From a virus, in IMG/VR virus record IMGVR_UViG_3300031774_000001: DNA of 64,000 bases. One strand, 5' to 3'. Under the pieces are notes generated by a model that ran no database searches, was not told the origin of the DNA, and saw nothing but the letters and a program-made list of their open reading frames with translations. This document shows, in pieces, positions 9,317-35,027 of the stretch (positions are counted from its first letter, which is position 1; each line of letters begins with the position of its first letter). The position numbers were made by a program, and so were the translations under genes.

Positions 9317-10477
9317 GTGATTATGAAATATCCATTAGCCTGTGATACTTGGGATCAAAAAGAACTAGACGCAATACAAGAAGTTATAAAAAGTGGCCGA
9401 TATACAATGGGCCCACACGTCAAGAAGTTTGAGCAAGAGTTTGCTAAATATTTTAGATGTAAAGACGCAGTTATGGTTAATAGTGGTTCAACCGCCAATC
9501 TATTAATGGTAGCATTATTAAAATTAAAATATAAAAAAGGTGGTAATATAATTGTGCCTGCTGTATCTTGGTCAACAACATATTTTCCATTACAACAATA
9601 CGGTTTCAAATTAAATTTTGTAGATGTAGATAGAGAAACTTTAAATATAGACCCTAATAAAGTTAGAGAAGCAATTAATGAGGATACGTGTGCTATATTT
9701 GCAGTTAATCTTTTAGGTAACTCCTGTGACCATTATTCATTAATGCATATTGCTAGAGATAATGGACTTATGTTAATAGAGGATAATTGTGAGAGTTTAG
9801 GTGCTCAGACATATAACTTTGAATATTGTGGAACGTTTGCTGATTTAGGTAGTTTTTCTTTCTTCTTTTCACATCACTTACAAACAATGGAAGGTGGTAT
9901 GATTGCTTGTAGAGATAAAGATGACGCAGATTATTTAAGGTCATTAAGAGCACACGGTTGGTGCCGAGATTTACCAGACGATAATAAGATTTATAAGAAG
10001 ACTGGAGATAAATTTAAAGATAGTTTTACGTTTGTAACTCCAGGATATAGTGTTAGACCATTAGAAATGAGTGGTGCGATAGGTAGTGTGCAACTTAAAA
10101 AAGAATTTGCAATGAGAACACAAAGAATTAAAAATGCTAAATATTTTCAAGAAAGATTTAAAAATAATAAAGATATTTTATTACAGAAAGAAATAGGAAC
10201 ATCTAGTTGGTTTGGATTCTCACTAGTATTACAAAACAATTTAGAAGGTAAACGTGATGAAGTTGTTAAGAAACTTACAGAAAATGGAGTAGAGTGTAGA
10301 CCTATTGTTGCAGGAAACTTTATGAAAAATCCTGTAATAGATTATCTTGAATATTATAGTAATAGTTGTCCTAATGCAGATTATATTCATAAGAATGGTT
10401 TGTTTATAGGAAATGATATAGGAGATTTAACATTAAACATTGATATGGTATACAGTATAATAAAGGAAGTAAAATGA
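9317..10477 (+). CDS. ColD-like GDP-4-keto-6-deoxymannose 3-dehydratase (DegT/DnrJ fold)
   Basis: VNSGSTANL, EDNCESLGA, SFFFSHHLQTMEGG with His at the usual PLP-Lys position; next to gmd. Confidence 0.85.
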   Translation: MIMKYPLACDTWDQKELDAIQEVIKSGRYTMGPHVKKFEQEFAKYFRCKDAVMVNSGSTANLLMVALLKLKYKKGGNIIVPAVSWSTTYFPLQQYGFKLNFVDVDRETLNIDPNKVREAINEDTCAIFAVNLLGNSCDHYSLMHIARDNGLMLIEDNCESLGAQTYNFEYCGTFADLGSFSFFFSHHLQTMEGGMIACRDKDDADYLRSLRAHGWCRDLPDDNKIYKKTGDKFKDSFTFVTPGYSVRPLEMSGAIGSVQLKKEFAMRTQRIKNAKYFQERFKNNKDILLQKEIGTSSWFGFSLVLQNNLEGKRDEVVKKLTENGVECRPIVAGNFMKNPVIDYLEYYSNSCPNADYIHKNGLFIGNDIGDLTLNIDMVYSIIKEVK

Positions 10478-31848: not shown

Positions 31849-32010
31849 ATGAATATACAAAAGCAGATTACAGTATTAAAAGATACAATCAAGTGGTTTA
31901 GAACTCAAATTGAACCACACGATTGTGGATGGATGTACACAACAATAGACGGTATCAAACACCGAATAAGTGATTTGAGAAAGAAATTGAGGAAACAAAA
32001 TGGCAAGTAA
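31849..32010 (+). CDS. 53-aa hypothetical protein (likely leaderless)
   Basis: ATG 6 nt after the -10; EPHDCGWMYTTI. Confidence 0.6.
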   Translation: MNIQKQITVLKDTIKWFRTQIEPHDCGWMYTTIDGIKHRISDLRKKLRKQNGK

Positions 32011-32698
32011 ATTTTCTTGGGTTGATTTAGATAAAAATAAACTTCCAAAAACAAAAGGTAGACGTATAAACGGTTTTCGTTTTTATGACGTTGATGGTAA
32101 AAACTATCCATCTATCACAACAGTTTTAGGTGTACAGAAAAAAGAAGGATTAGATAAGTGGAGAAAAGCAGTTGGTGAAGAAGCAGCCAATTGGGAAATG
32201 GGTAGAGCGGCACGAAGAGGTAAAGCAACTCATACACTTGTTGAACAATATTTAAGAGGTGAAACTCCTAGTATTAGGGACGTACTACCTTTGGGTATGT
32301 TTAGATTAATGCTACCTTACATAGACCAAATTAATAACATACATTTACTAGAAGAGATTATGTATAGTCATAAATTGACTATTGCAGGTCAAGTAGATTG
32401 TGTCGCAGAATACAATGGCAAGTTATCAGTAATAGATTTCAAAACAGCAAACAAAGAACGACAAGAAAGTTGGATAGAAAACTATTATATACAAACTTGT
32501 GCTTATGCAATGATGTATGAGGAGATATTCGGTAAACGCATTGACCAATTAGTTATATTAATGGCAGGTGAAGATGGCACTATGCGTTCTTTTGTCAAGG
32601 ATAGAAAATTATTTGAACCTAAACTTGAAGAATCTATAAAGTATTTTTATAAATACTATGAAGAACTAAACAAAGATAAAATCAAGCAAAATCATTAA
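32000..32698 (+). CDS. PD-(D/E)XK exonuclease
   Basis: YPSITTVL, RGKATH, AGQVDC, IDFKT, QTCAYA. Confidence 0.9.
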   Translation: MASKFSWVDLDKNKLPKTKGRRINGFRFYDVDGKNYPSITTVLGVQKKEGLDKWRKAVGEEAANWEMGRAARRGKATHTLVEQYLRGETPSIRDVLPLGMFRLMLPYIDQINNIHLLEEIMYSHKLTIAGQVDCVAEYNGKLSVIDFKTANKERQESWIENYYIQTCAYAMMYEEIFGKRIDQLVILMAGEDGTMRSFVKDRKLFEPKLEESIKYFYKYYEELNKDKIKQNH

Positions 32699-32733
32699 CA
32701 AAGTGGCCTAAATTTTATCCACGAGAGGTCACT

Positions 32734-33141
32734 ATGTACAAGACAATAATATCACTAATTTTTGGAGCATTACTCTTAATGAGTACTGTTGCTATGGCGG
32801 AGCAAACACCAGAAACACCTAATACTATAGAACCATTACAGCCTGAACAAGACCAAATGGCAAAATTATATTGGATGTCAATGCCAGTTATTTGTGGTAA
32901 ACAGGAATATGTTGAAGAGTATTTAAAACATCATAAATTTCTAATGGCTAATATGTCAGTTGGAAGAGAGAATGCAAAACCTGAAAACCAAATTGTATAT
33001 TACGTTACCTACTGGATATCAGAAGACTTTTCTCAATCAATAGCAGTAGTAACTAATATGGCAGGTACAGAATCTTGTATGATGTATAAGTCATTTGATT
33101 TACAATGGACTGAACCACCAAGATTAGGGAAAGATTTATAA
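32734..33141 (+). CDS. Secreted hypothetical protein
   Basis: Signal peptide ending AMA, PVICG, SC. Confidence 0.7.
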   Translation: MYKTIISLIFGALLLMSTVAMAEQTPETPNTIEPLQPEQDQMAKLYWMSMPVICGKQEYVEEYLKHHKFLMANMSVGRENAKPENQIVYYVTYWISEDFSQSIAVVTNMAGTESCMMYKSFDLQWTEPPRLGKDL

Positions 33142-33144
33142 TGA

Positions 33145-33396
33145 ATTTGACGTTGAAGAATAGATAATAACTAGTGAGGACGTGGGTGCGATTCCCACCA
33201 CCTCCACCAATTCAAAACACATATAATAGTGTGCTTTAAGGGGGTGAGTTAGATTCGACTACTACTAAAACTATTTGGAGTTAAATCGCTGATAGCGTAC
33301 TATCAAAACTATAAAAGCAAACGAAAGTTTAGCTCTTGCTGCCTAGTTACTAGGCAAACGGCGTTGTGTAGTACGTGGCAACAGAAACTACACACT
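33145..33396 (+). ncRNA. ssrA: Circularly permuted two-piece tmRNA (alphaproteobacterial type)
   Basis: Acceptor piece ends GTGGG-TGCGATT-CCCAC-CACCTCC-ACCA (33209); intervening hairpin; coding piece starts GGGGGTG (33240); G3-U70 pair; tag ANESLALAA* 33317-33346. Confidence 0.93.
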
Positions 33397-33424
33397 TTAC
33401 ATTTACTAGAAAATATGTTATAGT
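33396..33424 (+). promoter_or_regulatory. sigma70 promoter for gp33
   Basis: TTTACA-17-TATAGT, ATG 6 nt downstream. Confidence 0.65.
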
Positions 33425-33430
33425 AACACA

Positions 33431-33646
33431 ATGAACTCAAAAGAATTTTCACTAATTATAGAGGACATAGTAAAGAAGCATAAAGAACTATCTTATGTGG
33501 ATGCTATTGTTAAATATTGTGATGAAAATAATATTGAAATTGAAACTACAGCACGTCTAATTACAAAACAACTCAAAGAAAAAATACAACATCAATCAGC
33601 ACAACTAAACCTGTTAAAAGGTGGTAAACCTGGAATGTTGCCATAA
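33431..33646 (+). CDS. 33: Late promoter co-activator gp33
   Basis: FS..IE.IV, YVDAIV.YC.EN.IE.E, LKEKI. Confidence 0.85.
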   Translation: MNSKEFSLIIEDIVKKHKELSYVDAIVKYCDENNIEIETTARLITKQLKEKIQHQSAQLNLLKGGKPGMLP

Positions 33647-33900
33647 TGAAGAAGTATAAAAACTATCAAGCATTTAAAGAATCACTATTAGGTTTTAAAT
33701 TACCTGATTTGTCTTTAGATATAAATGGTCTTAAAAGAATTTCTATACCTACAAGTGATACAATACCAGGTGCGTGTGTAAAAAGAACTTTACCTAAAGT
33801 TACATTACCTGAAGGCAAGACAATTGGTCTAGCATATAACAAAGGTAATTATCAAGTTGTAGATAAATCAGATTTTGAAACTATGGGTAGAAAGATATGA
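33646..33900 (+). CDS. Hypothetical protein
   Basis: AYNKGNYQV motif. Confidence 0.7.
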   Translation: MKKYKNYQAFKESLLGFKLPDLSLDINGLKRISIPTSDTIPGACVKRTLPKVTLPEGKTIGLAYNKGNYQVVDKSDFETMGRKI

Positions 33901-34514
33901 AAGTAGATTTTATAGATAAAATGGGAAGTGACCTATCAGTAGTAAACGCTGCTAGAGTATCATTTGCAAAAAGAAAAGAAGTACTTGATGAGAAAGATGA
34001 TAAGTTAATTAAATATTTGGCACATTGGGGTCATTGGTCACCATTTGCTCACGCTACAATGTCATTTAGAATTAAGGCACCAATATTTGTTGCAAGACAA
34101 TTAGTTAAACATCAAGTTGGTTTAAGTTGGAATGAAGTGAGTAGAAGATATGTAGATGATGATCCAGAATTTTATATGATAGATGAGTGGAGAAGTAGAC
34201 CAAAGAAGTCTATCAAACAAGGTTCAGGTGATAAACTTATAAAATTTGATATTACTCACGCTGTTGATACAGCAAAAGGAACATATCACTATATGTTAGA
34301 GGAAGGTATTGCACCTGAAATGGCACGTATGATATTACCTCAAAATATGATGACCGAATGGATATGGTCTGGTAGTGTATATGCTTTTAGTAGAGTATGT
34401 AATTTAAGAACTAAATCAAACGCACAAAAAGAAACAGGAAGTGTAGCTGAACAAATGGCAAGTATTATGAGAGAACATTTTCCATTATGCAGTAAGTATT
34501 TGCTTGACAAATAG
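33897..34514 (+). CDS. thyX: FAD-dependent thymidylate synthase
   Basis: VVNAARVSF, HWSPF, VARQLVKH...NEVSRRY, ARMILPQ, AQKE. Confidence 0.95.
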   Translation: MKVDFIDKMGSDLSVVNAARVSFAKRKEVLDEKDDKLIKYLAHWGHWSPFAHATMSFRIKAPIFVARQLVKHQVGLSWNEVSRRYVDDDPEFYMIDEWRSRPKKSIKQGSGDKLIKFDITHAVDTAKGTYHYMLEEGIAPEMARMILPQNMMTEWIWSGSVYAFSRVCNLRTKSNAQKETGSVAEQMASIMREHFPLCSKYLLDK

Positions 34515-34532
34515 CAGTTATTGGTATATAAT
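34504..34532 (+). promoter_or_regulatory. sigma70 promoter
   Basis: TTGACA-17-TATAAT. Confidence 0.85.
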
Positions 34533-34541
34533 GAGAGATAT

Positions 34542-35027
34542 ATGAATATATTTTACCTAGATAAAGACGTTAATAAATCAGCAGAATATCACAACGATAA
34601 GCATTGTGTTAAAATGATACTAGAGTATGCTCAATTACTATGTACTGCTCATTGGGAATTAGATGTATCAAATACAGTAATGAATAATCCTTTAGGGTTG
34701 TATAGACCTACACATAAAAATCATCCAAGTGCTATATGGGTTAGAAAATCAAAAGCGAACTACGAATACTTGTATAGATTATTTAATGCTCTATGTAATG
34801 AGTACACACATAGATATGGCAAGACACATTTAACATATAAAAAATTACATAACGTTTTAGCCACACCACCACAAAATATACCAGATAAAGAATTTACAGA
34901 ACCAACACCTGCTATGCCAAAAGATGTTAGGAATAGTGATAGTCTAAAAGCGTATAGAGATTATTATAAGAAATACAAATCACACCTTGCAGTATGGACT
35001 AAAAGAGATACGCCTAGTTGGTATTAA
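34542..35027 (+). CDS. Pyrimidine-dimer DNA glycosylase-like protein
   Basis: MNIFYLD, DKH.VKM.LE.AQLL.TAH, HKNHPSAIW, EY.HRYGK.H, AYR.YY. Confidence 0.75.
   Translation: MNIFYLDKDVNKSAEYHNDKHCVKMILEYAQLLCTAHWELDVSNTVMNNPLGLYRPTHKNHPSAIWVRKSKANYEYLYRLFNALCNEYTHRYGKTHLTYKKLHNVLATPPQNIPDKEFTEPTPAMPKDVRNSDSLKAYRDYYKKYKSHLAVWTKRDTPSWY

Follow-up and report, generated by a model that had tools for sequence, protein, structure and literature searches.

A permuted two-piece tmRNA gene upstream of gp33 in an uncultured T4-like pelagimyophage

Examination of a 64-kb stretch of the viral record IMGVR_UViG_3300031774_000001 (the window, to which the tmRNA coordinates refer) revealed a permuted tmRNA gene located directly upstream of gp33. 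The window has a G+C content of about 31%, carries nearly all of its ORFs on one strand and encodes the T4-type proteins NrdA, baseplate wedge gp6, hub and tail-tube cap, as well as gp32, a T4 baseplate protein, gp33, gp59, thyX and a denV-like glycosylase. Its gp6 is 72% identical to that of Pelagibacter phage Mosig, 56% to that of HTVC008M and 53% to that of the OM43 phage Melnitz. Judged from its sequence, the window phage is an uncultured T4-like pelagimyophage of the Kyanoviridae type with Mosig as its closest cultured relative. Elsewhere in the window, possible auxiliary metabolic genes code for a family-3 solute-binding protein (PF00497, 42444-43520), an aminotransferase (phrog_3139, 9317-10477) and a PLP-dependent enzyme (PF00291, 24434-25318). 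The features of the tmRNA locus are as follows.

32734-33141, plus strand: upstream ORF of 135 amino acids whose N-terminus is hydrophobic and resembles a signal peptide; conserved left neighbour of the tmRNA gene
33137-33142, plus strand: TATAAT, a -10-like element overlapping the stop codon of the upstream ORF
33145-33396, plus strand: permuted tmRNA gene (pre-tmRNA), delimited according to the Rfam models RF04321 and RF01849
33145-33209, plus strand: acceptor piece, with the helix 2 5' strands, T-arm, acceptor 3' strand, discriminator A and encoded CCA
33145-33151 with 33280-33286 (ATTTGAC/GTTAAAT) and 33159-33163 with 33271-33275 (AATAG/CTATT): helix 2
33182-33198, plus strand: T-arm, GTGGG (33182-33186), loop TGCGATT, CCCAC (33194-33198)
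33199-33205, plus strand: acceptor 3' strand CACCTCC, followed by the discriminator A and the encoded CCA (33207-33209)
33210-33239, plus strand: 30-nt spacer with a small hairpin
33240-33396, plus strand: coding piece, with the acceptor 5' strand, helix 2 3' strands, PK1, tag ORF and 3' structures
33240-33246, plus strand: 5' end GGGGGTG, forming a 7-bp acceptor stem with CACCTCC; G3:U70 is the pair 33242:33203
33287-33304, plus strand: PK1-like pseudoknot, CGC/GCG (33287-33289:33295-33297) and GATA/TATC (33291-33294:33301-33304)
33317-33346, plus strand: tag ORF called by ARAGORN, with GCA resume codon, ANESLALAA and TAG stop
33341-33355, plus strand: stop-codon hairpin GCCTAG-TTA-CTAGGC, enclosing the stop codon
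33365-33394, plus strand: 3' terminal hairpin of 8 bp with GGCAACAGAA in its loop
33396-33424, plus strand: sigma-70-like promoter TTTACA-17-TATAGT with TG before the -10 (10/12 matches)
33431-33646, plus strand: gp33, late-transcription coactivator (PF16805, E 6.7e-23), conserved right neighbour

A first-pass annotation, made from the sequence alone, had proposed a phage-encoded, circularly permuted two-piece tmRNA at this position and had named ARAGORN and the alphaproteobacterial Rfam model as means of checking it. Both searches were run and both were positive. The single ARAGORN call in the 64 kb is a permuted tmRNA with the tag ANESLALAA* (span 33114-33437). RF04321 (tmRNA_permuted) matches over its full length (model positions 1-213 of 213) at 33145-33346 with 99.6 bits (E 3.5e-18), and RF01849 (alpha_tmRNA) over positions 1-355 of 355 at 33095-33396 with 87.1 bits (E 3.4e-22), where the respective Rfam gathering cut-offs are 47 and 50 bits. 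The agreement between ARAGORN and Rfam places the tmRNA far above chance.

The permutation, also flagged by ARAGORN, can be read directly from the order of the parts: the CCA end at 33209 is followed by the spacer and then by GGGGGTG from 33240. The structural details given in the first-pass annotation all held. The T-arm, CACCTCC-ACCA, the 30-nt hairpin spacer and GGGGGTG lie where it had placed them, the G3-U70 alanine determinant falls within the 7-bp acceptor stem, and both strand pairs claimed for helix 2 are present and covary in viral homologues. Likewise, the PK1-like pseudoknot can be drawn ahead of the tag frame, ARAGORN returns the same tag, and the terminal hairpin carries GGCAACAGAA in its loop as described. 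Bases 33373-33376 of this loop can moreover pair with 33361-33364, which makes the element 33361-33394 a potential pseudoknot. By analogy, the spacer is expected to be excised in processing.

The slot upstream of gp33 is fixed in Mosig, HTVC008M, Melnitz and about 100 IMG/VR contigs among the matches listed, and about 100 viral loci among these matches share the order PD-(D/E)XK nuclease, small ORF, tmRNA, gp33, (thyX) and gp59. In the window, gp33 starts 35 nt past the end of the tmRNA gene. In most related viral contigs among the matches listed, a homologue of the 135-aa upstream ORF precedes the tmRNA by about 0.55-0.8 kb. The protein was considered as a cryptic SmpB and rejected: because it has a signal-peptide-like N-terminus and no Pfam or PHROG match, it is not a hidden cofactor.

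The TATAAT at 33137-33142 is the probable promoter element of the pre-tmRNA. No convincing -35 accompanies it, and the promoter scanner passed over it for that reason. In Melnitz-type relatives the corresponding position is occupied by a complete promoter, TTGAC-N17-TATAAA. The possibility that a T4-type late promoter (TATAAATA) precedes the tmRNA was considered and discarded, as the motif in Melnitz-type relatives is a sigma-70-type -10 (TTGAC-N17), and of the late-promoter motif the window holds just TATAAT. The second promoter, at 33396-33424, is conserved in close relatives and ends 6 nt before the gp33 ATG with no Shine-Dalgarno sequence in between, so that the gp33 mRNA may be leaderless or nearly so. 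No intrinsic terminator was found after the tmRNA gene. The structured RNA in the short gap separating ssrA from gp33 varies from relative to relative: Melnitz (contig L004, 1886-1934) has a glutamine riboswitch (RF01739, 52.8 bits) there, and one IMG/VR contig (L007, 8176-8382) a manA RNA motif (RF01745, 64.7 bits). From their position between the two genes, these elements may control gp33 rather than the tmRNA. In the window, 33397-33430 is without any such RNA, and RF01739 has no match in 32000-34600 even at E values up to 10; the riboswitch, described for Melnitz, does not define the phage group.

The first-pass annotation had also started from the premise that phage tmRNAs are mostly one-piece. 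For marine phages this premise fails. Buchholz et al. (2022, PMC9004378) reported two-piece tmRNAs in the isolates Melnitz, Mosig and HTVC008M as well as in 17 of 47 related contigs, the Mosig gene is labelled 'SsrA' in GenBank, and of 133 unique phage tmRNAs 53 were found to be two-piece by ARAGORN, 50 of these 53 coming from marine or aquatic phages (PMC9004378). A tmRNA database paper from 2025 lists 79 bacteriophage sequences (PMC11915505). The class being already published for pelagimyophages, the window tmRNA cannot be presented as novel on this ground. A blastn search with the tmRNA region gave no match at E <=1e-5 among 50,697 phage records, and the relatives described below were found through proteins and covariance models.

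RF04321 finds one copy each in Mosig, Melnitz and HTVC008M, whose tags are GEDNFALAA, ANDNYVPVDYALAA and ANFNEYALAA, respectively. A pattern for the tRNA-like domain matched at least 119 IMG/VR contigs, compared with 16 contigs in a cellular set of one genome per species (185,579 species); at least one of these 16 is a mis-binned phage contig. The contrast between viral and cellular counts carries little weight, since the pattern was derived from phage sequences; as applied to cellular genomes it demanded a spacer of 20-50 nt and TAGNTTCGAC, and it missed the tmRNAs of SAR11, which have a 13-nt spacer and TAGGATCGAC. The contig NYWG01000047.1, from a metagenome-assembled genome (MAG) named 'Verrucomicrobiales bacterium CPC23' with four permuted tmRNA matches, has the pelagimyophage gene order and the tag GEGNFALAA; it is 22,067 bp long, as is IMGVR_UViG_2816332427_000010, and most probably represents phage DNA that ended up in a bacterial MAG by mis-binning. 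Another MAG, MED657, holds three tmRNA matches. A second viral set (contigs L013, L014, L016, L040, L062 and similar ones) has the tRNA-like pattern without T4-like flanking genes; the tags called there by ARAGORN are mostly long, such as ANAFKPEVTVPMSVFADQELVAA and ANKRALGFADLTVGMSELRLAA, with the short ADAELVAA in a few.

The claim that gene finders miss permuted forms received some support. Among the matches listed, 23 of 121 viral loci with the tRNA-like pattern went without a tmRNA call from ARAGORN; 17 of these were re-tested and all 17 gave clear Rfam tmRNA matches (65-122 bits). ARAGORN alone thus under-counts two-piece phage tmRNAs by about one fifth.

Conservation of structure was evaluated on a MAFFT alignment of 46 non-redundant viral tmRNA copies among the matches listed. 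RNAalifold recovered, unaided, the T-arm, the acceptor stem and two helix-2 segments. With the structure drawn for the window, 81.6% of the cells are paired, compared with 40-47% after sliding of the partners; two-sided changes are seen in 242 cells, against 97 expected from shuffles; and the covariation score is 0.295, against 0.05-0.09 for the slid controls. None of 500 shuffles matched the observed values of pairing and covariation. In the T-arm, 100% of cells pair and three of the five pairs show compensatory changes, and the three helix-2 segments pair in 87-90% of cells, with up to 22 of the 46 sequences changed on both sides of a pair, while the invariance of the acceptor stem in this set is imposed by the search pattern. 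PK1 and the stop-codon hairpin pair in 58-66% of cells on this wide alignment, a value partly due to misalignment; PK1 shows compensating changes in close relatives (GACA with TGTC, for example), and the stop-codon hairpin occurs in part of the family only. The 3' hairpin also pairs less well on the wide alignment, again partly through misalignment; by direct scan, an ACAGAA-type loop flanked by a stem is present in all 83 T4-like viral tmRNAs among the matches listed, with 26 different stem sequences. ARAGORN finds a tag ORF in each of these 83 copies as well, and their 25 distinct tags all end in AA followed by a stop. The spacer varies among relatives in both length and sequence, ranging between about 25 nt and, in Melnitz, about 150 nt. 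Covarying helices, retained tag ORFs and retained 3' hairpins together point to purifying selection and not to a decaying fragment. We therefore regard the window gene as probably a functional, selectively maintained alpha-type two-piece ssrA of an uncultured T4-like pelagimyophage.

The two halves of the molecule differ in how far they vary. Among the matches listed, 25 viral contigs have the window's 52-nt tRNA-like core without a single difference, and yet this core is found with six tags: ANESLALAA, ANESYALAA, ANESYAMAA, GEGNFALAA, DNHIDYRMAA and DNESYRMAA. The commonest tag among the matches listed, ANESYALAA, is one residue away from that of the window. Across viral tags, the first five to six residues vary and the end A/R-L/M-A-A is kept. 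The resume codon is Gly (GGC) in three relatives with the tag GEGNFALAA, contig L042 among them, and Asp (GAC) in three others whose DN...RMAA tags end in RMAA instead of ALAA. The identical core with six tags, set against a single tag in the SAR11-like genomes described below, is a modestly new point.

Compared in 100-bp bins, contig L042 and the window are 94-100% identical over most of the flanks, with lower values in the upstream ORF and thyX, and 85% identical in the bin covering the greater part of the tag-coding half, where the tags differ. As thyX and the upstream ORF form divergent patches similar to that of the tag-coding half, ordinary mosaic recombination is the simplest explanation of the tag variation, and selection on the tag is a minority possibility. 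It is accordingly rather unlikely that the tag-coding half is a fast-changing exchangeable cassette, set on a frozen tRNA-like domain, whose variation is under selection. If selection rather than neutral mosaicism were at work, phages may tune the encounter of rescued products with host SspB/ClpXP, or may evade recognition of the tag or the mRNA-like domain by a host factor. The tRNA-like domain is presumably frozen because it must fit host AlaRS and SmpB.

The variable tag half could also bear on a phage-specific form of tagging, in which host or incomplete proteins are marked for amino-acid recycling, as proposed by Buchholz et al. (PMC9004378), and in which changes in the tag alter its handling by SspB. 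Such a role would agree with the variation of the first five to six residues beside a conserved A/R-L/M-A-A end, and with the presence of SspB in SAR11-like genomes that keep the one tag ANDNEMALAA. We consider it improbable: trans-translation tags the products of stalled ribosomes only, with no known selection of host proteins, and mosaic recombination, as in the thyX and upstream ORF patches, also explains the variation.

The host side was examined in a set of SAR11-like genomes, obtained from the bacterial order reached via one pattern match, with ten genomes drawn across the order. These genomes are 0.9-1.7 Mb in size with about 30% G+C, carry rhodopsin in four of five cases and would correspond to SAR11 (Pelagibacterales). 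They encode SmpB (1/1 tested), ClpX (5/5) and SspB (3/5). The absence of smpB from the window, noted in the first-pass annotation, was borne out by tblastn with a SAR11-like SmpB over the 64 kb (best E 3.9), and no SmpB is present in the complete genomes of Mosig, Melnitz and HTVC008M.

With no smpB in the window or in the three complete relatives, the window tmRNA must draw on the host SmpB pool, a dependence that would also suit a modulator or decoy, that is, a phage RNA whose main effect would be to compete for the SmpB of the host, or to weaken or divert its trans-translation in some other way, without added rescue. The tRNA-like domain is indeed the most constrained part, with its identical 52-nt core in 25 contigs of the matches listed that differ in tag, and the tRNA-like-domain-only RNA of mycobacteriophage DS6A offers a precedent (PMC4131195). 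A decoy would nevertheless not need the tag ORF, the AA-stop ends and the 3' hairpin, which are kept in 83 of 83 copies among the matches listed, and this role is highly improbable.

In a maximum-likelihood tree, the window tmRNA lies inside nested, well-supported groups that are all viral, the SAR11-like copies form their own clade (SH-aLRT 100), and the split between viral and cellular copies has an SH-aLRT of 89. Nested as it is in the viral clade, the window tmRNA is an old resident of the phage lineage and not a recent capture from a host. That the gene is a non-functional passenger (a recent host ssrA fragment, an integration-site remnant or an assembly chimera) is hardly credible, for although tmRNA genes are common integration sites and fragments occur in prophages (PMC9004378), the gene is full length with covarying helices, sits at the same place in three lytic T4-like isolates and, among the matches listed, in about 100 viral contigs, has about 60% identity to SAR11-like tmRNA, nests in the viral clade and is accompanied by no integrase-family match among the window ORFs scanned against Pfam and PHROGs.

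For the functional ssrA favoured here, ordinary trans-translation on host factors is the most likely mode of action, by analogy with cellular systems. One precursor would be transcribed from the promoter with its -10 at 33137-33142. The two-piece tmRNA of Caulobacter, reportedly described by Keiler et al. in 2000, serves as the model for precursor processing. By this analogy, host RNase P would cut 5' of G33240 and nucleases would trim the other piece to the CCA at 33209, with loss of the 30-nt spacer. The acceptor stem and helix 2, for which both pairing and covariation were observed, would hold the two pieces together. Host AlaRS would charge the molecule through G3:U70, and host SmpB and EF-Tu would bring it to ribosomes stalled on broken mRNAs, where translation would resume at the GCA at 33317 and add (A)ANESLALAA, the ALAA end directing the product to host ClpXP. 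The phage would thus supply the RNA alone, with SmpB, ClpX and SspB being host-encoded. Given the T-loop difference and the identity of about 60-62% to SAR11-like tmRNA detailed below, compatibility with host SmpB is assumed.

The first-pass annotation had conjectured that the phage tmRNA either supplements ribosome rescue or may replace a host tmRNA cleaved by anti-phage ribonucleases. The first of these roles is plausible; one may speculate that its benefit is extra rescue capacity in a small, ribosome-poor host during the mRNA breakdown of infection. SAR11 is the most abundant bacterial lineage of the ocean. T4-like phages of SAR11 and OM43 consistently carry a ribosome-rescue RNA of their own, which suggests that trans-translation capacity limits phage production in such tiny, ribosome-poor cells. 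The window tmRNA leaves this existing picture unchanged; what it brings out is the contrast between a frozen tRNA-like domain and a tag that varies even among near-identical phages, while the host tag is fixed. Cultured systems for the study of expression and tagging are available in Mosig or HTVC008M on HTCC1062 and Melnitz on H5P1.

Among known systems, the one-piece tmRNAs of mycobacteriophages (Bxz1 group) and Bacillus phage G are, like that of the window, phage-encoded without a phage smpB, but they have the unpermuted gene form and belong to other hosts and phage families (PMC4131195). The two-piece tmRNAs of Alphaproteobacteria (Caulobacter, RF01849 and the SAR11-like genomes) share with the window the permuted layout, G3:U70, the encoded CCA, helix 2, a 3' loop of the GGCAACAGAA type and a tag ending in ALAA; unlike in the window, the cellular copies have a genome-encoded SmpB alongside. 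The window acceptor strands GGGGGTG/CACCTCC are identical to those of six of the ten SAR11-like genomes. The SAR11-like copies differ from the window in their alpha-type T-loop GGCGGTA (TGCGATT in the window), in a spacer of 13 instead of 30 nt and in their near-invariant tag, ANDNEMALAA in nine of the ten genomes and ANDNKMALAA in one, and overall identity to the window tmRNA is about 60-62%. A literature search returned no match for the tag ANDNEMALAA. All ten of these genomes have thyX on the strand opposite the tmRNA gene, at a distance of about 1.15 kb, and thyX is near ssrA in the phages too; the proteins being about 35% identical, this shared proximity may be a coincidence.

The ssrA of the Methylophilales phage Melnitz comes from the same phage group, occupies the same slot upstream of gp33 and is alpha-type even though Melnitz infects a gammaproteobacterium (PMC9004378). 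It differs from that of the window by its spacer of about 150 nt, its longer tag ANDNYVPVDYALAA and its full TTGAC-N17-TATAAA promoter, and by a glutamine riboswitch between ssrA and gp33 where the window has a promoter-like site only. The SsrA of Mosig EXVC030M (MT647606, Mosig_00148) is, like that of the window, permuted and alpha-type, and the gene order is the same (PD-(D/E)XK nuclease, small ORF, ssrA, gp33, thyX, gp59). It differs in its tag, GEDNFALAA with a Gly resume codon, and in a longer spacer; over the 3' half of the tRNA-like domain the two genes agree at 28 of 33 bases, and blastn gave no match at E <=1e-5. Near-identical copies come from two short IMG/VR fragments of 4.7 and 7.0 kb: over the equivalent of 33177-33396, the tmRNA of IMGVR_UViG_3300006327_000157 (L152) is identical to that of the window and that of IMGVR_UViG_3300006318_000016 (L153) differs by one spacer base, so that, among the matches listed, these two contigs have a tag ORF identical to the window's. 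Their gp33 is 100% and their gp59 99% identical to those of the window, while their thyX is only 75% identical, which indicates a mosaic neighbourhood. The window tmRNA is thus one more uncultured example of a kind that has already been published.
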